This document shows positions 6,060-57,332 of a stretch of DNA of 64,000 nucleotides, one piece after another; position 1 is the stretch's first letter, and the number at the start of each line of letters is the position of its first letter. The notes beneath the pieces are model-generated. The model was not told the DNA's origin. It did not search any database and saw only the letters and a program-made list of their open reading frames with translations. A program made the translations under genes and the position numbers. Origin of the DNA: Dehalococcoidia bacterium (GTDB lineage Bacteria > Chloroflexota > Dehalococcoidia > UBA6926); assembly GCA_965207115.1 (NCBI GenBank), contig CBDBLR010000003.1, positions 2,014 to 66,013 of the forward strand. Reading direction: 5' to 3'.

Positions 6060-9000
6060 ATGCCTGTCGTGAGACGCCCGGCAAGGACCTTCCTCGCCTT
6101 GATGCTGGCTGTGGCGGCGTTGTTTGCGCTGCTGGTCGGCGGGACTGAGAACGCCTCCGCCCAACAACAGTCGCAGGCGCTGGTCAGCAACATTGGTCAG
6201 TCCGACAGCGGGCGGGGCGCATGGGGCAACGACTATGCCCAGGCGTTTACCACAGGCAGCGAGAGCACGGGCTACACGCTGAACAGCGTCGATATCGAGA
6301 TCGCGGGGATCAACGATTTCTCTGCTCTTTCTTCGAAACTAACGGTCACCATCCGCAGCGGTTCCGGCATTACTCCGGGTGCGGTGGTCGGCACCCTGAC
6401 GAATCCCTCCAACCGGATCTTCACCTCGGACCAAACGCTCAACTTCGCTGCGCCCGGGGCGGGCATTGACCTGGCGGCGGACACCAAGTACTGGGTCATG
6501 GTCGACGTGACCGGGAACATTTCGGGCCAGACCAATAGCGACGGCCTGCGCAACACGGCATCGGACGCCGAAGACTCCGGCGCCGCGGCCAGCTGGAGCA
6601 TTGCCGACGACAGCCGGCACCGGACCCGGACCTCAACCGGCGCCTGGACCACCTCTACCGAATCCATGAAAATCCGGATCGTCGGCGGCGTGAAGCCGCC
6701 GCTCATCAGCAACCTCGGTCAGGCGGACACCGGCGGCACGGGGTTGAATATCGACCAGGCCCAAGCGTTCACCACAGGTGGCAACGGCGGGGGTTACACG
6801 CTAACCAGCGCCGATTTGGTAATCGGCCTGAACAACGATTCTGCTCTCTCATCGAAACTGACGGCCACCATCCAGAGCCCGCTGGGCACGGTCATCGGCA
6901 CTCTGACGACTCCCGCCATCCCAACGACGAACTCGAATCAAACGGTCAACTTCGCCGCGCCCGGGGATGGCATCGACCTGGCGGCGAACACCACATACTG
7001 GTTGGTGTTCGACAGTACAGGAGTCTCAACGGGTGATGCTAGTACCGGAGCTACCCCATCGTCCGCCGAGGACTCCGGCGGCGCGGACGGCTTCAGCATC
7101 GCCAACGACAGATGGTACCGGTTCCAGAGCGATACTTCTTGGACTCAGATCGGCGGCAGCGCGCTGAAAATCCGCATCATCGGCGGCGTGAAGCTGCTTA
7201 CAGTGAACGCCGACGGCAGCTACACGGTGCCCGAGGACTGGGCGCTGCTCCCGGCGGGCTTCGGGCCTGGGGACCGGTTCCGGCTGATGTTCATGACGCA
7301 GGGTATGGAAAGTGCGCTTCGAAGCGACATCGGGTTCTACGACACGTATGTGCAAGGCGAGGCGGAGAGCGGGCACGGCGCCATCCGGCCGTATGCGGAG
7401 CTGTTCAAGGTGGTGGGCTCGACCTCGGCGGTGGACGCCCGTGACCACCTGGACATGAACCCGAGCAGCGACGGCGCGGGCCATCCCGTCTACTGGCTGC
7501 GCGGCCCCCGCATCGCGGATGACACCGCCGAGTTCTGGTCGGACAACTGGCAGAACTGGACGATTGCCAACCGCCGCAACGCGAACGGGAACGAGATGAC
7601 CGGCAGTGCGAGAGGCGACTGGCACTGGACCGGCACGCGAGCGGACGGGAGGGGGCACGCCTCCTTGCATCTGGGGAGCAACGACCGGGTTATGCGGGGC
7701 CGGTTCCTGAACTTCACCTCCGACCGGAACCCGCTCGACCACACCGGAACGCCCCGGGGCCAGGACCACTCCTTCTACGCCATGTCGCCGGTGTTCGTCG
7801 TGGATGGCCTCACCTATCTGGACCCTGGCAGCAACCCCCAGACTGGGAAACTCGTCGAAATCGACAAGACCCGCTTCAAGGTGGACGAGCCCGCCAGCTG
7901 CGGGGTGAACGAGGGCCGCAAGCAGAACGAGCGTGATAGTGATAGAGAGGGTAAGTGGGAGTCAACCATCGCGGACGACACGACGTACTCGTACAACGTG
8001 CGGCTGTTGCGGGACCCGGCGCTCGACCCGAAGATCGACACGGTGAAGGTTGAAGTGGTGGGCGGCAGCCCGCCCGACTGGTGGACGGCGCACCGGGCAG
8101 GGTTTGTGACGGTGGAGGACAAGGCTCCGGATATTGAGCCCAAGCAGGTCCTGCATTTCGATTCGTCCAACTGGGACCAGTGGCAGAACGTCCAGCTGCG
8201 GATTCACTGCGCGGACCACTTCCACTTCGGCGATGTCACCTGGCGGCAGTTCCGGCACGTCAGCTACACAAACAACAAGAGAAGGGATGGTAGGACTTTC
8301 CTGCAGAACGAAGAGCCGGTGGTGAAGGTGAAGGTGTTCGACAACCGGATACCGGCGTTGATGGACAGCTACAGCCACGAACTGAGCATGCAGGCGGAGA
8401 CCAACGAGTACGGCCGCCGTGGGGTTGAGACCGAGGTCATCAACTACGTGTACTGGCAGTGGAAGTTGCCCGGCGTCACGGGCAACGTGGACAGCGATGC
8501 GGACAAGCACTTCTCCCACTGGCATCTGCGGCTGCTCGCGGACAATAGTGTTGGTGGCAATGCACCGGACTGGGTCAAGAACGTCTCGACCGACGAGGGG
8601 TACTCCTTCAATCCGGACGGCAGATACAAGGCTGGGATGCGGATGCGGGGTCTGCCGACCAAGACGCCGTTCACCGCGCCTCCGAACAAGCAGTACCGGC
8701 TCGACATCACTCCGGTGACCCTGCGGGAAGAGATGGCGGAGGGCGCGAAGCTGACCGTCTGCATAGAGATGCGGGACGTGCGTCCAGACTGGGACACCCC
8801 CAACTGGCGGGCGTACTACATCCCCTGCACGCCGGCGCTGAATGCCCTGAGCCCCCAGCAGATGGCCCCGCCGGTGACCCCGACAGTGTTCATCGCGGGG
8901 GCCGGGGGCGGAGATGAAGGGCAGGGCTCCGTCTTCTTCATCAACACGAACCCCAAGCCCAGGTCCCCGCTGAAGGTGAATGTGGAGGTCACGGCCACGG

Positions 9001-12000
9001 GCGACTACGGGGTGACGACGGGGACGCGGACCATCACGATCCCGACCACGGGCCTCTACGACCTGAACATCGCCACCGTGGACGACGAGGTGGACGAGGA
9101 CGACGGCACGGTGACCCTCACCCTGCGGGATGGCGACGGCTACATCGTCGGCCCGGGGAACACGGAGACCACCGACGTCTTCGACAACGACCTGCCGCTG
9201 GCGCCGGCCATAGTCACGCCCGCGGTGAACGTCACGGGGGCCTCCGGCGGGAACGAGGGCGAGGACGCCGTCTTCACCCTGGAGGCGAGCCCCAAGACGG
9301 ACGCCGCCCTGGACGTGAACATAGAAGTCACGGCCACGGGCAGCTACGGGGTGAAGCCGGGCAAGCGGACGGTGACGATACCGGCCTCGGGCAGCCTGAG
9401 GCTGACCATCCCCACCAGGAATGATGGCACGGACGAACCCGACGGCACGGTGACCGTGACCCTGCAGGCCGGGGACGGCTACGAGATCGGGGCGCAGGCC
9501 TCGCAGAGCGCGGACATATTGGACAACGACCTGCCACCGGTGCAGGTCACAGTCGCCGACGCCATAGCGCAGGAGGGCGACGACCTGGAGTTCGTGATCA
9601 GCCTGGACCGCGCGGCGGACCACCAGGTCATCGTGCACTACGTCACGCTGGACTGGGATGCCTGGCATCCGGACGACTACGCCCAGGCCCTCGGCCACGT
9701 GACGTTCGCGCCGGGCGAGACGCAGCAGACGGTGCGCGTCCCGACAGTGGTTGACAACCGGGACGAATGGGGCCATGAGGAGGGGCAGGAGCGAATGCTC
9801 TTCCAGGTGACGGGCGTCGAAGGCGGCGAGGACGGCGACGATGATACCATCGGGATCATCAGCGACGACCCGGTGGACACCACGCCGAAGCCGGAGCTGA
9901 GCATCAGCGGAGGCAGCGGGATCACCGAGGGCGGCACGGCCACCTTCACCATCACCGCGAGCTTTGCGCCGGAAGACCCCATCACCGTCAAGGTGGGGGT
10001 GTCCCAGGGCGGGGACTTCGGCGTCTCGACCGGCACCAAGACGGTGACGGTGAGCGGCACGTCGACGACCTACACCGTCACGACTACAGACGACAGCGCC
10101 GACGAGCCGGACGGCTCGGTGACGGCGACGCTGCAAAGCGGCAGCGGCTACACCGTGTCTTCCTCGAATGGAGCGGCGTCGGTGTCCGTGGCCGACGACG
10201 ACCTGCCGCCGCCGGTGGCGAGCATCACCGGAGGCAATGGGATCACCGAGGGCGGCACTGCCAGCTTCACCATCACGGTCAACCCGGCCCCAACCAGTCC
10301 AATCACGGTCAAGGTGGGGGTCTCCCAGAGCGGGAACTTCGGCGTCAGCACCGGGACCAAGACGGTGACGGTGAGCGGCGGGACGGCGACCTACACCGTG
10401 ACTACCATCAATGACAACGCCGACGAGCCCGACGGCTCGGTGACGGCGACGCTGCAAAGCGGCAGCGGCTACACCGTGTCCTCCTCTAATGGAGCGGCCA
10501 CGGTGGCCGTGGCCGACGACGACGTCACGCCTGAGGTGAACGTCACCAGCGCGGCCAGCGGACCGGAGGGTCAGGACGTCACCTTCACGCTGACGGCCAA
10601 CCCGGCCCCGGGGGCCAACCTGCCGGTGAGCGTCACGGTGACCGGCAGCGGCGACTACGGCGTCTCCACGGGAACCTGGGTCGAGACCATCCCGACCGGC
10701 GGGAGCGTCGTCGTGACGCTCACCACCACGGACGACTCGACCGACGAGCCCAACGGGTCGGTGACGCTGACGGTGAACGGCGGCCAGGGCTACACCGTGG
10801 GGTCCCTGTCCAGTGAGACGGTGACGGTGACCGACAACGACGAACCACGGCAGCCACTACTGCTGCCGGACCCCGAGGTGAGCATCACCGCAGGGAGCGG
10901 GATCATCGAGGGCGGCACTGCGACCTTCACCATCACCGCCAACCCGGCGCCAAGCAGCCCCATCACGGTCAACGTGGGGGTCAGCGAGAACGGCGACTTC
11001 GGTGCCAGCGGCGCGGCCACGGTCACGGTGAGCGGCGCGAGCACGACCTACACCGTGACAACGACCAACGACAACGCCGACGAGGCCGACGGGTCGGTGA
11101 CGGCGACGCTGCAAACGGGCAGCGGCTACACCGTGTCCTCATCGCAGGGGGCGGCCTCCGTGGCCGTGTCCGACGACGACGTGCCCGAGGTGAGCATCAC
11201 CGCAGGCAGCGGGATCACCGAGGGCGGCACGGCCAGCTTCACCATCACGGCCAGCCCGGCCCCGGCCAGCCCCATCACGGTCAAGGTGGGGGTCAGCGAG
11301 AACGGAGACTTCGGGGCCAGCGGGTCGGCCACGGTGACGGTGAGCGGCGCGAGCACGACCTATACCGTGACCACCATCAATGACAACGCCGACGAGGCCG
11401 ACGGGTCGGTGACGGCGACGCTGCAATCGGGCAGCGGCTACACCGTGTCCTCATCGCAGGGGGCGGCGACGGTTGCCGTGTCGGACGACGACGTGCCCGA
11501 GGTGAGCATCGCCGCAGGGAGTGGGATCACCGAGGGAGGCACGGCCAGCTTCACCATCACGGCCAACCCTGCCCCGGCCAGCCCCATCACGGTCAAGGTC
11601 GCAGTAAGCGAGAACGGCGACTTCGGGGCCAGCGGGTCGGCCACGGTGACGGTGAGCGGCGCGAGCACGACCTACACCGTGACCACCACCAATGACAACG
11701 CCGACGAGGCCGACGGCTCGGTGACGGCGACGCTGCAATCGGGCAGCGGCTACACGGTGTCCTCCTCACAGGGGGAGGCTACCGTTGCGGTGTCGGACGA
11801 CGACGTGCCGACCGACGGCAACAGCGACACCCTGACGGTGTCCGTCGCGGATTCGGAGAGCGCAGGTCCGGGAGAGTTCCTCAAGTTCACGGTCTCGGCC
11901 AGCGAGACCGCCCAGCAGGATGTCACCGTCACGTTCACCGTGAGCAACATCGGCGGCTTGATTCAAGGCTTGGACTACTGCATCCTGCCCTCGGATGAGG

Positions 12001-12224
12001 AGCCCGACGCCAACTTCCGGTGCATGTTCCTCCCCTATGAGCATGACAACGAGGGAGGCCAGGTGACCATCGCCGCGGGCGAGGACAGCGCGACGGTCTA
12101 CATCTGGATCGACCGGGACGCCCGGGTGCCCTCCGGCCAGCCGCGGATCTTCGTCGATCTCACCGAGGTGGAGGGAGCGAAGGAGATTACCGATGGACTT
12201 GGAGAGGGCCGGGTCGAAAGATAA
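6060..12224 (+). CDS. giant secreted surface protein (2054 aa): signal peptide, two N-terminal ~175-aa repeat domains, central globular region, ~10 Calx-beta-like tandem domains
   Basis: N-terminus MPVVRRPARTFLALMLAVAALFALLVGGTENASA-QQQ (signal peptide, AxA cleavage). Repeats of ~100 aa ending ...TVTIxDNDxP / ...VAVSDDDVPEV, typical of Calx-beta. High DNA identity between repeats. Confidence 0.85.
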   Translation: MPVVRRPARTFLALMLAVAALFALLVGGTENASAQQQSQALVSNIGQSDSGRGAWGNDYAQAFTTGSESTGYTLNSVDIEIAGINDFSALSSKLTVTIRSGSGITPGAVVGTLTNPSNRIFTSDQTLNFAAPGAGIDLAADTKYWVMVDVTGNISGQTNSDGLRNTASDAEDSGAAASWSIADDSRHRTRTSTGAWTTSTESMKIRIVGGVKPPLISNLGQADTGGTGLNIDQAQAFTTGGNGGGYTLTSADLVIGLNNDSALSSKLTATIQSPLGTVIGTLTTPAIPTTNSNQTVNFAAPGDGIDLAANTTYWLVFDSTGVSTGDASTGATPSSAEDSGGADGFSIANDRWYRFQSDTSWTQIGGSALKIRIIGGVKLLTVNADGSYTVPEDWALLPAGFGPGDRFRLMFMTQGMESALRSDIGFYDTYVQGEAESGHGAIRPYAELFKVVGSTSAVDARDHLDMNPSSDGAGHPVYWLRGPRIADDTAEFWSDNWQNWTIANRRNANGNEMTGSARGDWHWTGTRADGRGHASLHLGSNDRVMRGRFLNFTSDRNPLDHTGTPRGQDHSFYAMSPVFVVDGLTYLDPGSNPQTGKLVEIDKTRFKVDEPASCGVNEGRKQNERDSDREGKWESTIADDTTYSYNVRLLRDPALDPKIDTVKVEVVGGSPPDWWTAHRAGFVTVEDKAPDIEPKQVLHFDSSNWDQWQNVQLRIHCADHFHFGDVTWRQFRHVSYTNNKRRDGRTFLQNEEPVVKVKVFDNRIPALMDSYSHELSMQAETNEYGRRGVETEVINYVYWQWKLPGVTGNVDSDADKHFSHWHLRLLADNSVGGNAPDWVKNVSTDEGYSFNPDGRYKAGMRMRGLPTKTPFTAPPNKQYRLDITPVTLREEMAEGAKLTVCIEMRDVRPDWDTPNWRAYYIPCTPALNALSPQQMAPPVTPTVFIAGAGGGDEGQGSVFFINTNPKPRSPLKVNVEVTATGDYGVTTGTRTITIPTTGLYDLNIATVDDEVDEDDGTVTLTLRDGDGYIVGPGNTETTDVFDNDLPLAPAIVTPAVNVTGASGGNEGEDAVFTLEASPKTDAALDVNIEVTATGSYGVKPGKRTVTIPASGSLRLTIPTRNDGTDEPDGTVTVTLQAGDGYEIGAQASQSADILDNDLPPVQVTVADAIAQEGDDLEFVISLDRAADHQVIVHYVTLDWDAWHPDDYAQALGHVTFAPGETQQTVRVPTVVDNRDEWGHEEGQERMLFQVTGVEGGEDGDDDTIGIISDDPVDTTPKPELSISGGSGITEGGTATFTITASFAPEDPITVKVGVSQGGDFGVSTGTKTVTVSGTSTTYTVTTTDDSADEPDGSVTATLQSGSGYTVSSSNGAASVSVADDDLPPPVASITGGNGITEGGTASFTITVNPAPTSPITVKVGVSQSGNFGVSTGTKTVTVSGGTATYTVTTINDNADEPDGSVTATLQSGSGYTVSSSNGAATVAVADDDVTPEVNVTSAASGPEGQDVTFTLTANPAPGANLPVSVTVTGSGDYGVSTGTWVETIPTGGSVVVTLTTTDDSTDEPNGSVTLTVNGGQGYTVGSLSSETVTVTDNDEPRQPLLLPDPEVSITAGSGIIEGGTATFTITANPAPSSPITVNVGVSENGDFGASGAATVTVSGASTTYTVTTTNDNADEADGSVTATLQTGSGYTVSSSQGAASVAVSDDDVPEVSITAGSGITEGGTASFTITASPAPASPITVKVGVSENGDFGASGSATVTVSGASTTYTVTTINDNADEADGSVTATLQSGSGYTVSSSQGAATVAVSDDDVPEVSIAAGSGITEGGTASFTITANPAPASPITVKVAVSENGDFGASGSATVTVSGASTTYTVTTTNDNADEADGSVTATLQSGSGYTVSSSQGEATVAVSDDDVPTDGNSDTLTVSVADSESAGPGEFLKFTVSASETAQQDVTVTFTVSNIGGLIQGLDYCILPSDEEPDANFRCMFLPYEHDNEGGQVTIAAGEDSATVYIWIDRDARVPSGQPRIFVDLTEVEGAKEITDGLGEGRVER
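10872..11807 (+). repeat. three near-identical 312-bp (104-aa) in-frame tandem repeats inside giant gene
   Basis: Unit begins CCCGAGGTGAGCATCACCGCAGG at 10872, 11184 and 11496. Minus-strand shadow ORFs also recur with a 312-nt offset. Confidence 0.9.
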
Positions 12225-17681: not shown

Positions 17682-19667
17682 TCACAATGCTCCGGCTGAC
17701 ATCGCAGCCGTCTGTTTTCTTTGAGTCATTCGATCAAACACCATCGCCATGAAAACGATGGTCATCCCCGCAACCAGGCCATGGCCCATCTCAAGCCGGA
17801 TGGAGTTGATAAATACTTCCTGCCCCAGGCCCGCGCCGCCCACCAGGCCTGCGATGATCACCATGGCCAACACCATGATGATGGTCTGGTTGAGGCCCAT
17901 CATGATCCTTGGCAGGGCCAGCGGTATCTTGACCTGGAGCATTGTCTGGAAGCCTGTGGAGCCATGGGACTGCGCTGTCTCGATCGCCTCGTTCGGAACT
18001 TCCTTTAACCCCAGTGAGGTCATGCGGATCACTGGAGGCAGCGCGTACACCGCTGTGGCAATGATGCCGACCAGCGGCCCAATGCCCCAGAGCATGATCA
18101 CCGGTATCAAGTAGACGAAGATTGGCATCGTCTGCATGGTGTCCAGGATGGGACGCAGGATCGACTCGAACGTCCTGCTCTGCGAAGCCAGGGCGCCGAG
18201 CGTGACACCAACGACTACCGTGAACATTCCCGCAGTCAGCACCTGGCTCAGTGTGACAACGGTCACGTCCCAAAGCCCGCCGATGCCCGCGAACAAGAGC
18301 CCCATAACTGCAAGTAAGGCCACGCGCCATCCCGCGGCAAGATACGCGGCAACGGCCGCAATCACCATCAGCGCCGGCCAGGGAAGCCAGAGCAGGAACG
18401 TATTAATGGGTGAATACCCTAGCTCACGGAACAAGGTATCGCGTATCCAGCTTGTCACACCGTAGAAATTGATAGCCATCCAGTCGAAGACGCTATTGAT
18501 CTGGTCCGACATCGTAAAGGTCAACTCGTCTGGGAAATCCCTCAGTGGAGAGATGAATGCGCCGAGGAGTGCAAGGACCCCCATCAGTACGATGCCAGCA
18601 ACAAGAAACGGGTTCTGAGAAGCCATGTTGCGGATGGTCTTGCCGGCTGTCCTCTCGCCGGAGGGCTTGGCCGATGAGGCGGCCGTATTGGCTCGCGGAC
18701 CGGACTGAGCAAGGGCGTAACTGAACCTGTCCAGGATGATGGCCAACAGCACGATGGCGATGCCGCTCTGCAGCCCATCCCCGGCGTCCACCTCCCTCAG
18801 CGAGAGCCAGACATCCCGGCCGAGGCCCTCCACGCCGACCAGCGCGGTAATGATCACCATGGCAACCGCCATCATGATGGTCTGGTTAACGCCCATCATG
18901 ATTGAGCTCTTGGCCAACGGAATCTGAACGTGAAATAGCGTCTGGGTGGGTGTTGATCCATGAGATTGGGCGGTTTCGACAACTTCCTGTGGAACCTGGC
19001 GAATCCCAAGGTTGGTCAGTCTGATGACGGGCGCAATGGAATAAACGACAGTCAGGAAAACGCCCTGCGCCCCGGCCACCCCAAACAAGACCAGCGCCGG
19101 AATGAGGTACACAAAGGCGGGCAGCACCTGCATCGTGTCAAGAACTGGGCGGACCATCGCCTCGAATCGATTGCTGAATGCCGCCAATATGCCAATGGGC
19201 ACACCGATTCCGACGGCGATAAGCACGGAAAGTCCGACCATGCTTAGAGTGACCATCGCGGAGTCCCAGAAACCAATTAACCCCGTGAACAGAGCAGCCA
19301 CGCCGCTAAACACTCCCAGCCATTTGCCGCCTAGCCGGAAACCCACAAGTGAAACCCCTGCCACCACAAGCGGCCAGGGGAGCCACAGCAGAAGGGCGTC
19401 AATTCCGGCTATGCCTGCGTCTAGCACGTCGGCGATAGGATTGAAGAACCAGGCGAACGTATCGCCGACCCACTCAAAACTCGTGTCGATGACCCCTTGG
19501 ATGGGCAGTTCCCAACTGCGCGGCCAGTTGCCAAAATCGGTGTTTGCCTGATTCGTCGCCAGTGTATAGGCCAAGAGATAGGTAAAGGCAACAATTACCG
19601 CCCACAGGAGCCACCGGAATCGTGACTCTCGGAGAAACTGGAGCTGCAGTGTATCCGTACGGATCAC
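17682..19667 (-). CDS. proW: ABC transporter permease, tandem-duplicated (two ProW-like TMDs fused), 661 aa
   Basis: Two copies of the EAA-loop-containing permease core (…SHGSTP/SHGSTG…QVKIPLA…). Confidence 0.8.
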
Positions 19668-20983
19668 GCTACACCCTCGTCACTCACCAGGGCGGCCATC
19701 GCCTCTACCCGGGTTATTGTGCCGATGCATCGGCCGTCGTCCAGGACGGCGATGGGTGCGTCATTGTCGATGACGAGGGGAATGAGCCGTTCTAGACGGG
19801 TGTCTGCTTCTGTAACAGGGCATGAGTCCTGCATCGTGGATGCCACGCTGGTGTGCGCTGCCGCGCCATTCCTTGGTACATCGTCCAGGTGCACGGTTCC
19901 GATGAATAAACCTTCCCCGTCCACCACCACCGCGCATTCGCATTCCTGCGCGGCCATTGCGCTCATCACGTCAGCCACTGACTGATCCGCCGTCACATAG
20001 ACGGAGGGCTCTGTCATCACAGAACGGGCGGTGAGGACCTTTGAACGCGGCACGTCCCGTGTGAAGTCCCGCACGTAGTCGTCAATGGGATTGGAGACCA
20101 ACTCTTCGGGTGTGCCGACCTGGACGAACTCTCCGTCCTTCATGATGGCCACACGGTCTCCCACCTTGATGGCCTCCAAGAAATCGTGTGTGATGAAGAC
20201 CATCGTCTTCTTGACCATCTGCTGGAGCCCGATCAACTGATCCTGCATATCCCGACGGATGAGAGGATCAAGAGCGCTGAACGGCTCATCGAAGAGAAGA
20301 ATCTCGGGGTCGACGGCCAGGGCGCGCGCCAACCCGATACGCTGCTGCATCCCCCCGCTCAGCTCATGAGGATATCGCTGCTCCCAACCTGACAAGCCCA
20401 CCAGGTCAATGACTTCCTCCGCGCGATGAAGCTGCGTGGCCTTATCGATGCCCTGGACCTGGAGACCGTACACGACGTTATCAAGGACCCGCTTGTGGGG
20501 GAAGTTGCCGAAGTGCTGGAAGACCATGCCCATCTTGTGACGACGGACATCCCTCAGCTGCTGCTTGCTCATAGCGAGCAAGTCCTCACCGTCTACGTGG
20601 ACATGTCCGAGGGTCGGCTCGATGAGTCTGCTCAAACAGCGGACAAGCGTGGACTTGCCGCTGCCGGAAAGACCCATGATGACAAAGGTCTCTCCGTCAG
20701 ATACATCGAACGAGACGTCCCGCACGGCGAGAACGCTCCCGGTCTCGGCCAGAACATCTTCCCGGGTCTGGCCGGGCTCTACAGAATCGGCAAGCTCCTC
20801 GGCTCCGTCTCCAAAGACCTTCCAGAGGTTCTCGCAGACAAGTCGGGTCTCGACCTCTAAGCCGGGTTCGTCGGCAGGTCGCGAATGATCGGCAGCATTG
20901 AGCGCTGCGGCATGATTATCGATATGGCACACCCCCCCACGGTGTTTCTCCACTCGGGTATGAGCAGGGCTGACAGGAGGCAT
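19664..20983 (-). CDS. proV: glycine betaine ABC transporter ATP-binding protein with C-terminal CBS pair (ProV/OpuAA); start at internal ATG 20983
   Basis: Walker [10 protein letters not shown], signature LSGGMQQR, Walker [13 protein letters not shown]-loop ITHD, CBS pair. The track ORF extends to 21886, but that N-terminal ~300 aa is antisense to the nitroreductase gene. Confidence 0.75.
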
Positions 20984-21259
20984 CGTCTCCGGCGCCACCC
21001 ACCGCCTTAGTGGTACAGCGGTGAGATTTAGACGCTTCGGCCAATCTGGACGCGTGTCGTCCAGCCCGCCCCCTGGTATTCCTTGGTCTAGCCCCCCCAA
21101 ATTTGAGATTCGTCGCAGTGTACAGGAAATCGGCGCGTTGAGTAAACTTTTGGTTAAAATCGTAAAATTTCCCGTCGACACGTGGCATCTGGTGCAGCGA
21201 CCGGCCTCATGCGCACGTACGCTAACAGAGTCCGCCAACCCGATGCCGCAGGAAGAAAT

Positions 21260-21883
21260 ATGAGCACAAAAATGAAACTGGACAGTGACGGTGTGGAGAT
21301 TCCCTCCACGCCGGTCAGTGTCTACGAGGCAATCTATCGGCGGCGACACGTGAAGGATTTCACGTCCGACGCCGTTACCCGCGAAACGCTGGAACGGCTC
21401 TTCTCCGCAGCTGTCTGGGCGCCCAATCATCGCCTTACTGAACCAACTCGCTTCTTCGCCGTCCAAAAAGACAGCCCCATCAGGACGAAGATCGCCGATA
21501 TCGCCTGGCAGGCGGCATATGACGGCGTGACCAATCCCAACCCTGAGCAGAAGCAGCGCTCCGCAGATGATCTGCAGGACCGGGTCCTGACCGCCCCCGC
21601 CATGGTCTACATCTATAGCGTCAGAGGTCTGATCGAGGAGATCAGCCGCGAAAACTACGCCGCATCCTGCATCGCCGTCCACAACATGGCCCTCGCCGCC
21701 GTAGCGGAAGGCCTCAGCCTTGGGTGGAGCACAGGGCGACTCACCAAGCTCCCCGGCTTGGCGGACATCCTGGGGGCGAACGAGGAATGGATGATGGTCG
21801 GAGTCGTGTTCATCGGCAAAGCCGCAGAAGACCCCGCAACACAGCGCACACCGCACTCTGAACACGTCACGTGGCTTGAGTGA
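21260..21883 (+). CDS. nitroreductase-family protein (207 aa)
   Basis: RBS AGGAAG before ATG 21260; nitroreductase-like sequence (…[10 protein letters not shown]…[13 protein letters not shown]…). Confidence 0.65.
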
Positions 21884-21960
21884 CAAACCCCAATTGCGGT
21901 GCGTTGACTTTCCCCGCTGTCGCTGGCAAGTTCGACTCTGAGATTCCTGAACCGGAGTGA

Positions 21961-22446
21961 ATGGGAATGGTCGACAAAACGACAGGGCCGTCTCGCAGAG
22001 CAGCGAGGCCTGCGAAAGAGTCCGCCCTAAAGCCCGCCGCCAACGGCATCGTCTACCTCTCCGGAGGCAACCCGCAGATCGCCAAGGGCGATGGTGATGC
22101 GCCCGTGCAGGCCTACATCGACGCCATGCCGGAATGGAAGAGCGATATTGGCCGACGCCTGGACGAACTCATCGTCCGCGCCGTCCCCAACGTCCGCAAG
22201 GCCGTCCGCTGGAACTCCCCCTTCTACGGCACGGAAGAGCACGGCTGGTTCGTCAGCTACCACGTCTTCGCCAAGTACATCAAGCTGACGTTCATGAACG
22301 GCGCAGGGCTGGACCCCATCCCCCCCGGCGGCGGCAAGGACCCGGACGCCCGCTGGATCGACCTCTACGAAAACGATTTCGACGAATCCCAACTAACAAA
22401 CTGGATCCAACAATCCGCCACCCTCCCAGCCTGGAAAGGCTTCTAA
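21961..22446 (+). CDS. DUF1801 (YdhG-like) domain protein
   Basis: Conserved …[26 protein letters not shown]…WNSPFYG…[15 protein letters not shown] pattern. Confidence 0.6.
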
Positions 22447-22460
22447 ACAACCACTACCGC

Positions 22461-22590
22461 CCTCGTTCACCCTGAGCCTGTCGAAGGGCCCCCACCCGTC
22501 ATTCCCGGCCTTACTCCCTAATTCCGGCGAGAGCCGGCATCCATGGATTCAGTCATTCAGAGCGCAGCAAGAGAACCCAAAGACGTGCCA
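22461..22590. repeat. composite REP-like element (modules B-A-A'-C)
   Basis: GTTCACCCTGAGCCTGTCGAAGGG + CGTCATTCCCGGCC + ATTCCGGCGAGAGCCGGCAT + GTCATTCAGAGCGCAGC; the same modules recur at about 11 other loci. Confidence 0.75.
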
Positions 22591-22712
22591 GATATCGGCA
22601 CGCTCTTCAGTATTTCCCAACGCAAACAAGGGATATTCACCGAGAAGAGACTTGGAACCAGACGAAAGGCTCAGTACAAGTCGTCGCCGGAGTACCGAAT
22701 AAGGCTTGGCGC

Positions 22713-24377
22713 TTATTGAGAGAGTCCTCCACCTAGCTCGCGGTGCATTCTGCGCAGAAAATCTACAATCTCGCGCAATCCTGACTCTGCTTCATCGACA
22801 CTGAGACGACTTGCCATTTCCTCGGCAAGTTCAGGCTTCCATGAATTCTTCGCGGCCTTTCGGCCAACGAGTTTCCTGATGGTCGATTCCACGCTAGAGT
22901 TCGACACAAGGTCATCTGAATTAAGCTCGACATCGTAAAGAGTTTCCACAGCCTTCTGCAAGGTATCCACCGGATAATGGTCTTCCAACGTCCCCCTGGC
23001 TAGTATCTGACAGTTTTCTGGCACGACATGACCCTTGTCAATTGCCTCCTGTGCCTCGACTTCGGCATCTTTATCTAGAATGAGGAACAAAGGTAGACCT
23101 GCTTCCCGACCTACTTCGGCCCAGAACTCAATCTTCCTTCTTCCTCGCGGGTATCCATTTGCTGAAATCACCTTGACGTGGCGCTCAGCAAGCGAGGCTC
23201 CAATCAGATCACTTATTCTACTGTAAAACAAGTTGTCTGAGAGGCCTTCAACCAGCAAAATGGCGTCACAGAATAGAATGTCGCTAGGCCTCATACCAAT
23301 GCCAAACAGTGTGTGCTGGAGGCCCGCGATATCGTCTAGCCGCTTAACTTTTGTTTCAGTTGACGGCTTGCTGACGGAATACAAACCCTTGAGTGGCGAG
23401 TATTCTACCAAGAATGGAGAGTGAGTAGCTATGAATAGCTGCTTGCCACTTTCGGCGATTTCTGTCAGATATTGCCCGACTTGCTTAATGAGACCAGGGT
23501 GCAAGTGTGTCTCCGGCTCCTCAATGACAATTAGCGGGCCACTGCTCTCAATTTGATCAACTAATTTGAGGGTATTCTGTGTGCCTTCGCCCGTCATGCC
23601 CAGCGAAACCGTTACGTCCCCTTCCTCCACCTGAATTGAGGAGTCTACTCCCACCAGTCTGTGGCCATTGGGAGTGAACCTTTCAAATTGTTGGCCCAAC
23701 TTCGTCCAGGGGCGGCGTTTCAGTCCCTTAGATTGGGACGAGATCCAGAGCTCCTGTGCCTGTTCGTCGTCGACTATGGTCGGACGTTCCCTAAATCGGT
23801 CAGACCAATCCGGGCGAGATTCGGAAGTCTGAACGACTGTTAGGCTGTACCTAAGGAGGTCTGAGAGTCGCTGAACCAGGTCAGCAATCGTGACTGAGAC
23901 CGAAATGTTGGATTCCACCAACAAAGCAGAGTCGATTTGACTATAGACCTCCTCTCCATTCCGTATGTAGTCGATGCCGTCAAATCTCAGACTATCTATC
24001 ACCCAAGTAATTGATGTACCCGCCAGATGGAAGCCCTTTTCTATGTAGACTTCCGGGCTGTAATCGAGTTGGAAAAGCTCGTCGTTGCCAAAGAGTTGCC
24101 CCCATTCATCCTCTGTTAGTGAAAGTGTGGCAGAAATGGTGGAAGGTGCGTCGACATAAGCATCATGTGCAGGGAAGAGGTGCTGGAACTCGTCGATTGC
24201 TCCCAATTCCCTTTCCATATCGGGGCCGAATTCAAGGAAGAGAAGAGACATGGCGTCAATAATATTTGACTTGCCCGAGCTATTCTTGCCAATGAAAACC
24301 GCGAGACCCGGTAACTCACGCAACTCAACGTCAATAAGGCTTGTGAAGTTGCGCACATGAAGAGTCTTGATTTTCAA
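22713..24377 (-). CDS. OLD-family (overcoming lysogenization defect) ABC-ATPase + TOPRIM nuclease, standalone (P2 Old / GajA-like); probable TTG start 24377 (alt GTG 24401)
   Basis: N-term KIKTLHVRNF…FIGKNSSGKSN (Walker A); LIVIEEPETHLHP (Walker B/D-loop); ATHSPFL (H-loop); TOPRIM LLVEGLSD … LILDKDAE. Gene GC ~48% vs ~64% flanks. SD AAGGAG before TTG. No adjacent UvrD-like helicase. Confidence 0.8.
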   Translation of the reverse strand: MKIKTLHVRNFTSLIDVELRELPGLAVFIGKNSSGKSNIIDAMSLLFLEFGPDMERELGAIDEFQHLFPAHDAYVDAPSTISATLSLTEDEWGQLFGNDELFQLDYSPEVYIEKGFHLAGTSITWVIDSLRFDGIDYIRNGEEVYSQIDSALLVESNISVSVTIADLVQRLSDLLRYSLTVVQTSESRPDWSDRFRERPTIVDDEQAQELWISSQSKGLKRRPWTKLGQQFERFTPNGHRLVGVDSSIQVEEGDVTVSLGMTGEGTQNTLKLVDQIESSGPLIVIEEPETHLHPGLIKQVGQYLTEIAESGKQLFIATHSPFLVEYSPLKGLYSVSKPSTETKVKRLDDIAGLQHTLFGIGMRPSDILFCDAILLVEGLSDNLFYSRISDLIGASLAERHVKVISANGYPRGRRKIEFWAEVGREAGLPLFLILDKDAEVEAQEAIDKGHVVPENCQILARGTLEDHYPVDTLQKAVETLYDVELNSDDLVSNSSVESTIRKLVGRKAAKNSWKPELAEEMASRLSVDEAESGLREIVDFLRRMHRELGGGLSQ

Positions 24378-24596
24378 CTTGGACAGTCTCCTTGCTCCCA
24401 CCCGCCTCTCATCTTACGATTGCCAGCATGCCTGATGACCATATCTTGTGTATTTTAGCTTATGTGTACGTATGTAGCAATCTAGAATCGCCCTTCTGCG
24501 TTGACAGGCATGGGGCAAGAATCACTTAGCTGGAATAGCGTACATTGGCAAGTTAGTCGTGAGTGAATTCAACAATCGACGGCCGCGCACTCCCCC

Positions 24597-25280
24597 TCAA
24601 ACCCTCTCTACTTGCCCAACCTCCACCCCTAACACCACGTCCAACACCTCTAGAATCAACTGCGTCGGCACACGGTCCCCGATATCCACCCCGACGTAAC
24701 CCCAGATCACACCGCCGTCCGGTTGGATGACGAACGTCGCGGGCGCGGCCACACCGTCCCCCAGCAGATTGAACACCCCGTAACTCTTCGACACGTCCTC
24801 GCTCGTGTCCGCCAGGATCGGAAACTCCGCCCCCGCCATCACCTCCATCCGCTCGGCATCGACCAATAAGTCCGTGCTGATCGCCGCGAGGCCGACGTTC
24901 CGGCTCTCAAACTCGTCGTAGAAACTCTGCAACTCGACCAGTTGCTGCTGGCAGATGCCTCAACCGTAGCTGCGATAGAAGACCACCACGAGCGCGTCGC
25001 GCCCCGCCAACAGATCATCCAGCGTATGCCTCTCGCCCGTGCCCGTCGAAAGCGAGAAATCCGGCGCTTGTGGCGCTTCGGGCTCCGGAATCTCTGTTGG
25101 AACCACGGTGGGCGAAGGCAGAGGCGTGTCCGTCGGGAACGGCGTCACAGTGGGTGAGGGCGCAAGAGTTGGAGCGGGTGTTGGAGTTTCCTCCGAGCAA
25201 CCCGCGACGAGGATGGCAATTGCCGCCAACATGGCTGTCAACAACAACAATTGGATGGGCACGAATCTACGGGTAATCAC
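24597..25280 (-). CDS. lipoprotein thioredoxin-fold redoxin (AhpC/TSA-TlpA-like) with in-frame TGA at catalytic Cys position: candidate selenoprotein (UxxC), alternatively pseudogene
   Basis: Track ORFs 24960..25280 and 24597..24932 are in frame (30 nt apart), separated only by TGA 24960-24962. Context …VVVFYRSYG-[TGA]-GICQQQLVEL… places the TGA exactly where redoxins carry the first Cys of CxxC. Stem-loop GCAAC-UGGUCGA-GUUGC begins 17 nt downstream. Confidence 0.5.
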
Positions 25281-25302
25281 CCCTCCATACTAATCGGCCT
25301 CC

Positions 25303-25440
25303 GCTCACCCTGAGCTTGTCGAAGGGCGACCAATATTGTCATTCCGAGCGCAGCCGAGGAATCTAAAGCCGTAATTGGGAAGCCCTCCCGCTCACCCTGA
25401 GCTTGTCGAAGGGTTCCCCGCTCCGGGATTCAGACGCCTA
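25303..25440. repeat. composite REP-like element (B-C-B-A')
   Basis: Two copies of GCTCACCCTGAGCTTGTCGAAGGG flanking GTCATTCCGAGCGCAGCCGAGGAATCTAAAGCC. Confidence 0.75.
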
Positions 25441-30379: not shown

Positions 30380-30590
30380 CGTCATTCCCCCGAAAGCATG
30401 CCCCGTACTCCGATACGGGGCGGGAATCCAGAACACCCTCTCCCAATCTGCGAGTACGATAGGCGTCCCACCCTTGAAGGGTCAAGAACAAAACACCCCC
30501 GTTCGCCCTGAGCCTGTCGAAGGGCCACCACGCCCGTCATTCCCGGCCCCCCCCGTCATTCCCGCGCAGGCGAGAACCTGAATCACAATG
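30380..30590. repeat. composite REP-like element (A with nested 20-nt palindrome, B, A')
   Basis: CGTCATTCCC…CCCCGTACTCCGATACGGGG…CGGGAATCCAG; GTTCGCCCTGAGCCTGTCGAAGGG; CGTCATTCCCGGCC…GTCATTCCCGCGCAGGCG. Confidence 0.75.
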
Positions 30591-30688: not shown

Positions 30689-30955
30689 ATGAGCCTGAAC
30701 ATCAAGAACGAAGAAACCTGCCGACTCGCCGAAGAACTGGCGGCCCTAACCAAAGAAAACAAGACGCAGGCCATCACCATCGCCCTGCAAGAACGCCTTG
30801 AGCGGGTGACGGGCGAGCGCGAAAAGAGAATCGAGTGGGAAAAGAAGGCAATGCGAGCCGCTGCGGAGCGTATTGCGCCGCACTTGAAACCGGGGCCCTC
30901 CTCTACAGAGATCGGTGACTTTCTCTACGGTGGCGAATTTGGCGAACCGAAATGA
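30689..30955 (+). CDS. vapB: type II antitoxin (VapB/FitA-like)
   Basis: 88 aa, SD GAGGAA; 4-nt overlap (ATGA) with downstream PIN gene. Confidence 0.6.
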   Translation: MSLNIKNEETCRLAEELAALTKENKTQAITIALQERLERVTGEREKRIEWEKKAMRAAAERIAPHLKPGPSSTEIGDFLYGGEFGEPK

Positions 30956-31338
30956 TCATCGATTCATCTGCGATCTGTGCCATCCTCCTAAACGAATCTG
31001 ACGCCGACCACTACGAAGATGCAGTAATAGACGCTGATGTCCGCCGCATGTCTGCGGGGAGTCTTCTGGAAACTTCAATGGTCATCGAAGGCCGGGCCGG
31101 ACTGTCGGGCGGAGATGAGCTTGATGCGTTCATCGAGCGCCACACAATCGAAATCGTCCCCGTAACGCCTGAGCACGTCGCCGCCGCTCGACGCGCCTGG
31201 CGAGAATTCGGCAAAGGCAACCACCCCGCCGCCCTCAACCTCGGCGACTGCCTCGCCTACGCCCTCTCAGAAATGACCCAAGAACCCCTCCTCTACAAAG
31301 GCCAGGACTTCGGCCAGACGGATGTTCAGCCGGCCTAA
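30952..31338 (+). CDS. vapC: PIN-domain toxin VapC
   Basis: MIIDSSAI… (Asp4), …D…LLYKGQDF…; 128 aa. Confidence 0.8.
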   Translation: MIIDSSAICAILLNESDADHYEDAVIDADVRRMSAGSLLETSMVIEGRAGLSGGDELDAFIERHTIEIVPVTPEHVAAARRAWREFGKGNHPAALNLGDCLAYALSEMTQEPLLYKGQDFGQTDVQPA

Positions 31339-33227
31339 GCCGCATCAGTCTCCTCTTCACTCTCACCCACTTCGTCAAACTCCTGCCCATCATCGACGAA
31401 CTGCTCTATAACACCTACGCCACCGACGTCAAGGGCATCTGAAAAAATCCGACGCCCGTCACCCAAGTCTCGACCCATGGCAGCACCAATAAGCGTGAGC
31501 ATTTCTTGGCCGCGTTCCATAAACGAGGCGCGAAAGTCATCAGTGTGCAAATGGTCGGGTTTGAGCCAATGAGACTCTAGGAGGGCATCAAGTTTGCCCG
31601 CGGGTACCTTGGACTGCAACGCATTCAAGTAAACCGAGGGTGCACGGCCGCCCATGGACCTATTTGTCCCTGGATCCATAGGTGTCTTGTTGATGATTGA
31701 GTCGTGCAACCACCTATCGATCCTGTTCGAAATGCACCACGCAACAGGGAATATGTGATGAATGTCGATACCCCTGTCGTCATAAGTAGTAAAAGAAAGC
31801 GACTCTGCCGTCATCCAGTCTTGGGCGCCATTCTTCAATTGTAGTGCATAGACGCCCTTGTACGCGGCGCTATTTCTGGTGCGGAGTGAAATGAGTCGCT
31901 CAGGAACGAAGTTTGCTTCGCGCAAGAAGGGTGGCTCTACGCCTGTTCGCACGTATTCAGCAACGTCGACAAGATCGCGCGCGAACTGTGTTTCGACGGC
32001 ACCCCCGTAAATTTCGCCAAAGACGCCAGACCAGTACCATCGTTCCAAGCGTTCCAATGCAATGGCCGTATGTGCCTCATGTCCCAATTCGACATATAGC
32101 ACCGCAAGCGGCACGAGTTGTGTGTTGTAAGGCACATTCCATCTGCCAAAGACATATTGGCTGCGCAGAAAATTAGCGGCCTTTATGAAGCCGTCTTCAA
32201 GTGCTTCTGCCCAACGGAGATAGTCCCTTTGCCGCAAGTCAAGGATATCCCTCTTCCTGCACCCAACTGCCCGCGCCCGGTTGTGTAGGGTGCCATCTTT
32301 GATGTCTGACCGATTGTCCTCCTGCGTTTTTAGCAAGGCAACCGCCTGCAAGAATTGATCGCCTGAAAGACCGTGCAGAACGCTGCGTTTGGAGTGCAGA
32401 CGAGTTCTCCGTTCATCCCAGTCATCGCGCAGAGAAAAACTCCCATCGACGGCAAAGGTTGCCGTAGCAAGCTCAAAGACGTTCAGGCTTACGCCGCCCG
32501 TGTTAACCTTTTCGAATACGGTGCAGACGGCTTCCTTTGGTGTTTCCTTGCCAAGTTCAATAACCGGAAGTTGATAGTTGGTGAAGTTATTGAGGACAGA
32601 TTCCTGGAATTCCTTGAAGAACTCTGGAGCCGTTCCACCCGGATGCTGACTTTCAGGGCTCGCCCAATACGCCACATACCCAAGTAGCCAATTCGTCGAG
32701 CCAAGCAGTGCCTCGGTGGGCATCATGTGCTTTTCAAACTCCCTCTCGGGAGTTGAAAGGTTCAGTACTTCTTTCCGGCCAAAATCTTCTGTGATGATTC
32801 GATTTTCTGGAAGGCTTCTTATCGCATCCTCACGATCAACTCTTGGATCCAGCGCCGCTTGCATGTCGACGTAGTACCACCGCTTGATCTTGCGTCTGCG
32901 GCTGTCGCTTGTGTCGACTGCGCCCGGATGTCGCAAAGCCTGGTAGAGGGAAGTGAGCCGCTGCTGGCCATCGAGAAGATATGATTCTGGAGAAATCGCC
33001 CCTTCACTCGTAGCACCCTCAATTAGCCGAGACTTGAGGCTTATATCCCCCCCCGCCTCCAGCGTCATCACGGCGCCTATTGGGAAGCCTCTTGAGATGC
33101 TGGCGAGAAGAGCGCGGATTCGGTCGTCGTCCCAAATCCAACCTCGTTGAAAGTCCGGCAATTTGATCTTTCCGGACTCAACGGAGTCGAGGACCTGCGA
33201 CAGCAGCCTAGGATTGGTGTCAAACAT
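31335..33227 (-). CDS. GmrSD-family type IV (modification-dependent) restriction endonuclease-like protein (DUF262 + DUF1524/HNH)
   Basis: N-terminal DUF262 motifs FQRGWIWDD and LLDGQQRLTSL; C-terminal His-Me finger …IDIHHIFPVAW…N. Gene GC ~52% vs ~65% flanks. Confidence 0.8.
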   Translation of the reverse strand: MFDTNPRLLSQVLDSVESGKIKLPDFQRGWIWDDDRIRALLASISRGFPIGAVMTLEAGGDISLKSRLIEGATSEGAISPESYLLDGQQRLTSLYQALRHPGAVDTSDSRRRKIKRWYYVDMQAALDPRVDREDAIRSLPENRIITEDFGRKEVLNLSTPEREFEKHMMPTEALLGSTNWLLGYVAYWASPESQHPGGTAPEFFKEFQESVLNNFTNYQLPVIELGKETPKEAVCTVFEKVNTGGVSLNVFELATATFAVDGSFSLRDDWDERRTRLHSKRSVLHGLSGDQFLQAVALLKTQEDNRSDIKDGTLHNRARAVGCRKRDILDLRQRDYLRWAEALEDGFIKAANFLRSQYVFGRWNVPYNTQLVPLAVLYVELGHEAHTAIALERLERWYWSGVFGEIYGGAVETQFARDLVDVAEYVRTGVEPPFLREANFVPERLISLRTRNSAAYKGVYALQLKNGAQDWMTAESLSFTTYDDRGIDIHHIFPVAWCISNRIDRWLHDSIINKTPMDPGTNRSMGGRAPSVYLNALQSKVPAGKLDALLESHWLKPDHLHTDDFRASFMERGQEMLTLIGAAMGRDLGDGRRIFSDALDVGGVGVIEQFVDDGQEFDEVGESEEETDAA

Positions 33228-40209: not shown

Positions 40210-42090
40210 GTGGACACCACAGACACCCCCAACCCCGACGAGCCGCAGCGCCCCGTCACACGGCGCGGCATCGCCCGACCGCCGCGCACCCGCCGCGCCT
40301 CAGCCGCCGCAACGACGGAAGCACCCCCGGAGGAAAACTCCGCCGAGGAAGCCGTGACCGAAAACGGCGCGACCCCCGCCGCTCACCCTGAACCTGTCGA
40401 AGGGACCACCGAAAACGGCGCAACTCCGGTCGAAACTGCGGACAACGGCACGACCCCCGCCGAAGCGCCCACGGAAAACGGCGCAGCCGCTCCGGATGCC
40501 CCCTCCCCATCACCGAGGAGGAGTCGAAGTGCGAGTGAAGCCTCCTCCATCACGGACGGCCTTCCACCCGCCACCATGACTACCACCACCGCGGAACCCA
40601 TTGAAGACATCGAAGAAGAAGCGCCACCCCGACGCGCGCCACGCCCACGTCCCTCCAACGGTGCAGGGCAGCGGCGACGCGAGCGACCGGACCGCGGTGA
40701 CCGCCCTAACCGGGCGCCCCGCGATGGCGGCGGCCCACGCCCACCTGCCAACGCTGACGACGGTGATTCTGACTCCCAACAGCGTGAGCCGCGTGTTTCT
40801 GACCTGCCGGAGCCGCTTCAGCAGGTCACCATCCCGCAGCTTGAGGCCCTTGATCGTGACGAGGCCGGCCGCCTCGCTGAATTCCTCAACATGCCCCCCG
40901 GCGCCGCCGTCCGACGTGATGAGATGGTCCATCGCGCCATCCAGACCCTCGGCGAGCGCGGCGGAACAATCACCGCCAGCGGCATCCTTGAGATCACCAA
41001 CGACGGCTACGGCTTCATCCGACACCGCACCCTCCGCCACAACATCAACGATGTCTACGTCGCGCAGTCGCAGATCCGCCGATTCAGCCTTCGCACCGGT
41101 GATTGGGTAACAGGGCAGGTCCGCTCACCCAAGAGCGGGGAGAAATACTACGGCCTCCTCCGCGTTGACACCGTCACCGGCCAGGAGCCGGAGATCTCTC
41201 GCCGCCGCCCCGTCTTTGACCAACTCACAGCACTCTTCCCGGATCGACTCTATGACCTGGAGACGAATCAAAAGGCCATCGCCGCCCGCCTGCTCAACCT
41301 CGTCGCCCCCATCGGCTTCGGACAGCGAGCCTTGATCGTCTCCCCCCCCAAGGCCGGCAAGACCATCCTTCTCCACCAGATCGCAGACGCCATCACCTCC
41401 CAGTACCCCTCCACCCACATCATGGCCGCCCTCATCGGTGAGCGACCGGAAGAAGTCACGGACTGGGAGCGCACCGTTAAAGGTGCAGAAGTCATGGCCT
41501 CCACCTTTGACGAGCCCGTTGAAGAACACACCCGCGTTGCAGAGCTCGTCCTCGCCCGCGCCAAGAGACTCGTTGAAGCCGGGCAAGACGTCGTCATCCT
41601 CCTTGACTCCATCACTCGACTCGCCCGCGCCTACAACATCGCCGCCCCTTCCAGTGGGCGCACACTCTCCGGCGGCATGGATCCCGTCGCCCTCTACCCC
41701 CCCAAGCACTTCTTCGGCGCAGCGCGCAACACAGAAGAGTCCGGCACCCTCACCATCGTCGCCACCTGCCTTGTCGACACCGGCTCCCGGCTTGACGATG
41801 TCATCTACGAAGAATTCAAAGGCACCGGCAACATGGAGGTCCACCTCGATCGCAAACTCGCCGAGCGCCGCATCTACCCCGCCATTGACGTCCTCAAGTC
41901 CGGCACACGACGTGACGAGCGACTCTACGACGAAAAGTCCTACCGCGGCATCGTCACCCTCCGCCGCATGATGGCCATGCTCTCCAACTCCAACCTTGAC
42001 GCATCCGATGCCACAGAGCGCATCCTTGACCGCATCTCAAAGACCAAGACCAACGCCGACTTTATCGCCACACTCTCCCGTGAAATCTAA
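40210..42090 (+). CDS. rho: transcription termination factor Rho with ~200-aa disordered N-terminal extension (GTG start)
   Basis: RNA-binding (…GDWVTGQVR…) and ATPase motifs (…PKAGKTILL…, Q- and R-loops); SD AAAGGAG 6 nt before GTG. Confidence 0.9.
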
Positions 42091-42095
42091 ACACC

Positions 42096-42206: not shown

Positions 42207-42331
42207 TGAACACCCCATTTCGTCCCTCCACAAAAGAAACCCCTACATATGCCCATCACCAACTCACCATAAATCGAAACAAGTCTCAAACCGGATTCGA
42301 TAATTTCAACCTGAACATGCCTAATCGACTA

Positions 42332-46907: not shown

Positions 46908-46920
46908 AAGGGCGAGTGGG

Positions 46921-57328: not shown

Positions 57329-57332
57329 GGCA

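Follow-up and report, generated by a model that had tools for sequence, protein, structure and literature searches.

Our question was what kind of gene fills positions 22447-24600 of a 64,000-nucleotide stretch of Dehalococcoidia DNA (contig CBDBLR010000003.1; the whole stretch is called the window here), and what this gene may do for its host. An initial annotation of the window had described the segment as a low-GC islet with one intact gene for an OLD-family protein, an ATPase joined to a Toprim nuclease, and no partner beside it. These main statements were supported when we followed them up. In the reading that we propose, the islet came in by horizontal transfer as a cassette of one gene, at a Chloroflexota hotspot that varies between strains, and its product is a stand-alone OLD-family enzyme, most likely anti-phage, a reading to which we would give a probability of roughly two in three (0.68).

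The gene and its slot

Positions 22447-24600 are precisely the stretch that separates the stop codons of two conserved, convergent genes, and the only long open reading frame (ORF) that the program's list gives for this space is 22713..24401 on the minus strand. The features that define the locus are the following.

22713..24377, minus strand: OLD-family gene of 554 amino acids, with an N-terminal ABC/SMC-type ATPase, a C-terminal Toprim nuclease and a helical C-terminal bundle
24388..24393, minus strand: Shine-Dalgarno-like AAGGAG, 10 nucleotides 5' of the TTG start at 24377, read from the sequence
21961..22446, plus strand: left flank, DUF1801 gene (Pfam DUF1801), edge of the hotspot and outside the system
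24597..25280, minus strand: right flank, AhpC/TSA-like lipoprotein gene (Pfam AhpC-TSA) with an in-frame TGA at 24960-24962, outside the system
22544..24591, no strand: OLD-specific cargo without counterpart in relatives by blastn (against relative L088 the break is 22458-24613)

We placed the gene at 22713..24377 because of the spacing of the AAGGAG, the identity of the 554-residue product of the TTG start to the database protein P0001, and the N-terminus MKIK..., which fits the M-[KR]-[IV]-K common to all relatives. The TTG at 24377 is most likely the real start, and in the translated ORF the Walker A motif comes soon after LSKLKIKTLHVRNF. The GTG at 24401 was rejected, as its Shine-Dalgarno spacing is unusable and both the family and the database protein begin at the TTG.

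The gene has a GC content of 0.498, and 0.536 at third codon positions (GC3), in a window with a mean GC of 0.609 and among neighbours with a GC3 of 0.66-0.81. A GC profile, which had been suggested as a check, gives the OLD gene the minimum over all gene-sized segments of the 64 kb, 3.3 standard deviations under the mean. The figures originally given for the islet were 48% against 64%; the direction was right, and the measured values are 49.8% and 60.9%, so that the flank value had been about 3 points too high. The OLD-specific segment (22544-24591) has a GC of 0.50, and six homologues in other genomes lie 9-14 points under their own flanks. By its composition, the insert looks foreign in origin and horizontally acquired.

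What we consider the strongest evidence for an islet comes from comparative genomics. Loci of relatives were found via homologues of the window's DUF1801 protein, and the window was compared by blastn with four of them (L088, L089, L090 and L091). In L088 (GCA_026713485.1, with a DUF1801 protein labelled 'MAG: Chloroflexi bacterium' by NCBI) and in L089 the flanks are about 95% identical at the nucleotide level; homology stops at 22457 and restarts at 24614, and between these points lie an AAA_33 gene and a 131-residue ORF. L090 (about 83% identical) shares the R1 and R2 repeats described below, shows a homology gap at 22543-24592 and holds an HNH_2 nuclease in the slot (PADLOC HNH model, 1e-17), while L091 and L092 have 16 bp only between the two convergent stop codons. 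The DUF1801 gene is 81-98% identical in relatives that have no OLD gene, and the AhpC-like gene, its TGA conserved, is present in them as well. Since the relatives hold other genes or 16 bp at this place, the slot is a strain-variable hotspot. The opposite possibility, that the locus is conserved in all relatives, had been named at the outset and does not hold, as the OLD gene is absent at the same locus in L088-L092. The slot contents are at 8492-9949 in L088, 8567-9705 in L090 and 8475-8490 (empty) in L091, and in L088 the inserted DNA has also taken the place of the final codons of the AhpC-like gene.

Beyond the motifs at its edge, a repeat search at the window copy found no flanking direct repeats or target-site duplication, no recombinase or transposase is found in the cassette, and no non-coding ends common to the cassettes of different genomes were found. 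Because neither a recombinase nor a target-site duplication was found, the cassette would most likely have arrived by recombination between the conserved flanking genes.

The edges of the islet have features of their own.

22451..22591, plus strand: cluster of motifs resembling repetitive extragenic palindromic (REP) elements, with one copy each of R1 (22451-22497), R2 (22516-22546) and R3 (22552-22591)
22451-22591, 25289-25422, 30487-30576, 42083-42215, 46913-46973, 47341-47401, 57307-57367: examples of repeat sites
24480..24452, minus strand: promoter-like, sigma-70-like TTGCTA-17-TAAAAT in the 40%-GC core of the upstream spacer, by consensus scan
22583..22603, minus strand: terminator-like hairpin, an 8 bp stem then CTTTGGGTT, 110 nucleotides past the OLD stop, by consensus scan (pattern only)

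The composite REP-like element that had been seen on one side of the gene consists of three dispersed intergenic motifs. R1 (CACCCTGAGCCTGTCGAAGGGC) occurs 7 times in the window, where 0 copies are expected; R2, a hairpin (CGTCATTCCCGCGAAAGCGGGAATCC), occurs 9 times and R3 (GTCATTCCGAGCGCAGCCGAGGAATC) 4 times. They often form clusters and are found in a number of intergenic regions, among them those on either side of the AhpC-like gene. Because the R1-R2 part is common to relative L090, we take it as host DNA and not as cargo. Of the AT-rich promoter region described on the other side, the composition was confirmed: the upstream spacer (24378-24596, about 220 bp) is 49.5% GC overall, with a core of 40%. 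The core does contain a sigma-70-like site, but the region has 3 such matches where 2.0 are expected, and a single match is not significant.

The protein and its place in the OLD family

The complete ABC-ATPase motifs and the Toprim domain with its Glu and DxD that the initial annotation had described were all located in the 554-residue protein. As in other members of the OLD family, an N-terminal ABC/SMC-type ATPase with Walker A, Walker B and H-loop is followed on the same polypeptide by a C-terminal Toprim domain with conserved Glu and DxD ligands. Pfam matches are all above the curated cut-offs (AAA_15, 78 bits with a cut-off of 32; AAA_21, 78 with 27; OLD-like_TOPRIM, 30 with 23). Among the PADLOC models Old is best (3.8e-27), closely followed by GajA, HEC-01A and AriA, and NCBIfam gives sub-threshold matches only, with the retron Eco8 effector as the best of these. 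The motifs present are Walker A GKNSSGKS (K36), a signature-like GMTGEGTQ (G260-Q267), Walker B IEEPE (E286/E287) and the H-loop ATHSP (H319). The Toprim residues E377, D381, D435-K-D437 and E465-D466 are all present too, so the possibility that the catalytic residues are missing, which had been raised as a way to refute the assignment, does not apply. In a 26-sequence family alignment G-K-N-x-x-G-K, G-x-G-x-Q, E-E-P-E-x-x-L-H-P, T-H-S, P-S-D and E-D-x-Y are invariant. The window protein matches 86 of the 90 strongly conserved family columns, with no mismatch inside a motif. Because these columns are kept and the motifs are intact, the gene is intact and its protein looks functional.

An alignment of hidden Markov models to the OLD protein of Thermus scotoductus (TsOLD, PDB 6p74) places E377, D381 and D435-K-D437 on TsOLD E377, D381 and D431-E-D433. 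In TsOLD, E377, D431 and D433 are ligands of metal A and D381 belongs to metal B (Schiltz et al., PMC7049728). By this equivalence the predicted metal A ligands of the window protein are E377, D435 and D437, and D381 is the predicted metal B residue. We infer that E465/D466 form the remainder of metal site B and that the near-invariant W513-K514 supplies the transition-state residue. For the fold we relied on an AlphaFold2 model built from the family alignment (mean predicted local distance difference test score 84). Foldseek on this model returned 6p74 first (1.6e-17), then GajA, then the retron Eco8 OLD protein; 6p74 is also the best solved-structure match by sequence profile (9e-25). In contrast to TsOLD, the model has two helices only (203-233) in place of the four-helix dimerisation domain, and C-terminal to the Toprim core it has a predicted helical bundle of about 80 residues that TsOLD reportedly lacks. 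The window protein has 554 residues and TsOLD 525.

Where the protein belongs within the family depends on whether gene context or sequence is used. By context, class 1 is a single gene that is not beside a helicase, a retron or a split partner (Schiltz 2019 and Dot 2023, summarised in PMC10568477), and the window gene, which stands alone between flanks that are conserved without it, fits this definition. By sequence, classes 1 and 2 are not separately monophyletic and there are 11 uncharacterised clades, among which U4 has no characterised member and is mixed from Bacteria and Archaea (Yang et al. 2025, EMBO Rep, PMC12796447). We used the sequences of Dataset EV1 of that study, compared over the 400 stored residues and for a subset of the clades; its entries for U2, U6, U9, U10 and class 2 lay outside the sample, and class 2 was covered via the GajA structures of the PDB. 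In Dataset EV1 the Walker A sequence GKNSSGKSN is found in U4 entries only. In blastp, the window protein aligns end to end with 9 of the 11 U4 sequences at 100-134 bits; U3 reaches 81 bits and the six class 1 sequences 30-55. A family profile, which contains some distant members that are probably themselves U4, scores all 11 U4 entries at 135-365 bits, 10 of them at at least 206. The same profile gives 154 bits to U3, 142 to Cran1 of class 5, 135 to U7, 84-117 to U8, 65-106 to class 1, 53 to Eco8 and 15 to class 4.

A rough neighbour-joining tree made with capped distances points the same way, placing the window's bacterial subfamily (200 of 200 bootstrap replicates) among the U4 sequences, where Cran1 also falls, on a long branch. 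The bootstrap support for the family together with U4, with or without Cran1, is moderate (178 of 300, 59%), and the window sequence and class 1 form a group without U4 in 21 of 300 bootstrap trees. From blastp, profile, tree and Walker A motif we conclude that the protein is affiliated with U4, and that it is class 1 by context and not by descent from the sampled class 1 sequences. The phylogenetic placement that had been proposed as a check therefore returned an OLD-family Toprim protein that groups with U4. The earlier label, a class 1 OLD or a GajA without GajB, stands for the gene context, whereas by sequence the protein groups neither with the sampled class 1 nor with GajA.

The affiliation with U4 is itself a distant one. 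The window protein is one of a tight bacterial subfamily, so far seen only on contigs of metagenome-assembled genomes (MAGs) and with a Dehalococcoidia MAG as its one named member, and this subfamily shares no more than 25-29% identity with the published U4 members. The nearest relative that we found is 58% identical. U4-type proteins are rare: a phmmer search of 1.84 billion cluster representatives gave 112 matches at E<=1e-30 and 1149 at E<=1e-10.

Comparison with the known classes shows what is shared and what is not. Like the class 1 proteins P2 Old, TsOLD (6P74), Vc OLD of Vibrio cholerae and YbjD of E. coli, the window protein is the product of a single gene and combines an ABC ATPase and a Toprim domain with the same acidic metal ligands, but similarity to them is mostly confined to the core from Walker B to Toprim (P2 Old is 28% identical over 26% of the protein). 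Unlike class 2 GajA, which is 575-600 residues long and scores 66 bits with the profile, it has no UvrD/PcrA-like gene beside it, and neither does any homologue examined; the large ORFs scanned in the window held no UvrD-like helicase either. With the class 3 OLD protein of retron Eco8 and with class 4 (PARIS) it shares a homologous ATPase, and in the case of Eco8 a homologous Toprim domain. Unlike class 3, no reverse transcriptase is found among its neighbours and no retron RNA nearby (no Rfam match), and unlike the split AriA/AriB of PARIS, ATPase and Toprim are fused in one 554-residue ORF. By these scores the nearest characterised relatives are Cran1, TsOLD and GajA, all of them distant.

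The position of Cran1 brings in the main rival to a defence function. Cran1 of the Sulfolobales, class 5, is an ATPase-dependent nickase; it is reported to be essential for the cell cycle, and no defence role is reported for it (PMC12796447). The window protein could likewise be a cellular enzyme, an ATPase-nickase acting on host chromatin, replication or repair. An OLD-family protein with a non-defence role has a precedent in Cran1 (Yang et al., PMC12796447), which is the best-scoring characterised relative that was sampled (142 bits by family profile, more than the sampled class 1 sequences and the 90 bits of full-length TsOLD) and which falls inside the U4 group in the rough tree. Against this, the class 5 gene is vertically inherited and paired with a gene for a membrane protein, whereas the window gene is strain-variable, about 11 points of GC under its host and unpaired, and its homologues are found among toxin-antitoxin (TA) and restriction-modification (R-M) genes, with unrelated neighbours and no operon partner. 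Because the gene is missing from relatives with flanks about 95% identical, in which the slot has other cargo or nothing, and because its composition is foreign, we disfavour a Cran1-like role and regard it as very improbable.

Neighbours, homologues and predicted function

The lack of a partner was followed in the window and beyond it. The neighbours in the window, in a gene order taken from L088, are a glycine-betaine ABC transporter, the DUF1801 gene, the AhpC-like gene, rplT and a CoA-transferase. No UvrD-like helicase or reverse transcriptase was found adjacent to the OLD gene or among the large ORFs scanned in the window, and Rfam gave no match at gathering thresholds over the window and none at E<=1 over 22300-25400. 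There is no meaningful small ORF inside the islet and no conserved antitoxin-like small gene beside the OLD gene. The DUF1801 and AhpC-like genes were considered as partners and rejected, both being conserved in relatives without the OLD gene. For the homologues we examined 13 loci, 8 bacterial (the window and 7 homologues) and 5 archaeal. For 12 of these (7 bacterial, 5 archaeal) the ORFs up to 4 kb from the gene were compared all against all, and Pfam was used to check L093 and the neighbours in the archaeal loci. No neighbour recurred in the 12 loci or in L093, and genes were shared only by the syntenic pairs L001/L083 and L005/L006, apart from a few weak partial matches between unrelated loci. 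The statement that no GajB or other partner is adjacent holds for the window and, as a recurrent neighbour, for the 12 homologues too.

These results bear on the idea that the gene is part of a multi-gene system with a partner encoded elsewhere, or an orphaned and silent remnant. OLD classes 2-4 do need partners, our view is limited to the 64-kb window, and the gene is known from sequence and not from expression. On the other side are the missing recurrent neighbour in 7 bacterial and 5 archaeal loci and L093, a full-length ORF with all invariant residues kept, its own Shine-Dalgarno and promoter-like sites, and the lack of a retron RNA or reverse transcriptase nearby. We see little chance that this idea is right.

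The OLD gene is solitary at every locus examined, and often in places rich in defence or TA genes. The L085 homologue is within a type I R-M operon with HicAB and PIN genes, those of L087 and L093 are in Phd/PIN clusters, and the L084 homologue is near IS66, MNT and HicB. In L003, a Dehalococcoidia MAG chromosome, a GmrSD gene is about 3.5 kb away, and the homologues of L001 and L083 adjoin priA.

Some of these homologues are accompanied by duplicated ends of host genes. In L085 the OLD gene lies between hsdS and hsdR, and copies of the 5' end of hsdR (MTTPAKLNELNHAEEPA...) follow both the OLD gene and the downstream PIN gene (7676-7812, 9104-9161 and 10023 onward), as though repeated cassette insertions had duplicated the target end. 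The same hsdR relic follows the OLD gene in L003 (about 11700-11760) and L087 (about 7655-7715), though no hsdR is present there; the window copy has no such relic. In the related genomes L001 and L083 the OLD homologue is bracketed by direct repeats of 252-256 bp, 92-98% identical (7461-7712 and 9858-10109 in L001; 5473-5728 and 7828-8083 in L083), which are the duplicated 3' end of the adjoining gene for a solute-binding protein. A further reading, which we think unlikely, is that such cassettes move by insertion into the ends of genes, duplicating the end that they enter, as the hsdR and solute-binding-protein relics would suggest.

A selfish or addiction module, or a weapon between elements, that persists by its own mobility or toxicity and not by protecting the host would account for several of these observations: a single-gene low-GC cassette, duplicated host-gene ends around homologues (the 252-256 bp repeats of L001/L083 and the hsdR 5' relics of L085, L003 and L087) and homologues intermixed with TA genes and IS66. 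P2 Old is also toxic in recBC cells. Such a module would fit poorly with the missing antitoxin-like small gene and with a cassette without recombinase or transposase. Additionally, the search of sequenced phages, plasmids and IMG/VR contigs found distant OLD relatives only and no close homologue. On balance we consider a selfish module improbable.

We return to the reading of a horizontally acquired cassette for phage defence. Because the characterised single-gene OLD proteins defend against phage, and with the evidence for an islet, the most likely function is that of a stand-alone, ATP-controlled Toprim nuclease in anti-phage defence. P2 Old, which ATP hydrolysis activates, cuts off the anticodon arms of tRNAs (PMC12445682). 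Vc OLD, a nickase, stops the replication of ICP1 and requires Walker A, Walker B and two Toprim aspartates (PMC12392090), and YbjD has anti-phage phenotypes (PMC13261556). Additional support comes from context, in the variable hotspot, the low GC and the TA and R-M company of the homologues. By analogy, the window protein would act against phages or mobile elements. Its working form is probably a dimer or a larger oligomer, with the Toprim site licensed by the binding and hydrolysis of ATP. Catalysis would use two metals, with E465/D466 in metal site B and W513-K514 as the transition-state residue. Upon infection the nucleic acid to be nicked or cut would be either the replicating DNA of the phage, as with Vc OLD, or the tRNA of the host, in which case the outcome would be abortive infection as for P2 Old.

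Several points weigh against this proposal. No member of clade U4 has been characterised, and by profile the nearest of the characterised relatives sampled is Cran1, which is described as an essential cell-cycle protein and not as one of defence. The PADLOC scores of 93 bits for Old and 90 for GajA do not separate the two. The immediate neighbours in the window are housekeeping genes and not a defence island, and the promoter and terminator matches occur at roughly chance frequency. The residues E465/D466 and K514 were assigned by their invariance and position, without alignment to a solved active site.

A further idea, which is tentative and which we think unlikely, is that U4-type OLD proteins are a functionally distinct single-gene class, with a minimal dimerisation insert, a C-terminal bundle like that of class 2 with an invariant W-K, and another substrate or trigger. 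The target might, for example, be a tRNA or a structured nucleic acid, or an activity on chromosomal DNA like that of Cran1 might have been turned to defence. Tests of single-gene OLD proteins are few, in vivo for P2 Old, Vc OLD and YbjD and in vitro for TsOLD, and these proteins already differ in substrate, from DNA nicking to tRNA amputation, and in trigger.

Because the locus offers an intact gene of the rare U4 type with clean natural controls, in that the same slot is empty or differently filled in close relatives, it is a reasonable candidate for cloning and a defence test. It also documents a small hotspot of defence type in Dehalococcoidia-like genomes; to our knowledge almost nothing is known of the phage defence of these organisms. 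The picture of OLD biology is not changed by this locus alone, which is a fairly ordinary kind of finding and of modest interest.

Other features of the window

The AhpC/TSA-like lipoprotein gene at the right edge of the slot (24597-25280, minus strand) has its in-frame TGA at 24960-24962 in the context FYRSYG-U-GICQQQ (UxxC). L088, L089, L090 and L091 all keep the TGA and the two halves of the gene around it, and in each of them gene callers break the gene in two. The protein is probably a selenocysteine-containing redox protein. A hairpin, GCAAC-UGGUCGA-GUUGC, lies 17 nucleotides past the UGA; in a check for a selenocysteine insertion sequence at this site the fold was no more stable than shuffles (z -0.58), and there was no Rfam match.

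A second low-GC stretch (about 0.52, the second-lowest gene-sized segment) covers 31335-33227 on the minus strand and 30689-31338 on the plus strand, and encodes a 630-residue restriction-like protein of the GmrSD_N/DUF262 type beside a VapB/VapC-like pair. Because the CoA-transferase gene almost adjoins thrS in L091, this stretch is another variable slot with nuclease-type cargo, about 7 kb from the OLD gene.

The 740-residue ORF listed for the OpuA ATPase (19664-21886, minus strand) is over-extended, as the ATPase gene of L088 has 439 residues. The opposite-strand nitroreductase gene of L088 corresponds to 21260-21883 of the window, where the plus-strand ORF is 21182-21883. At 6060-12224 on the plus strand, a 2054-residue ORF contains many tandem repeats of about 312-339 nucleotides, 60-93% identical, and presumably encodes a large repetitive surface protein.

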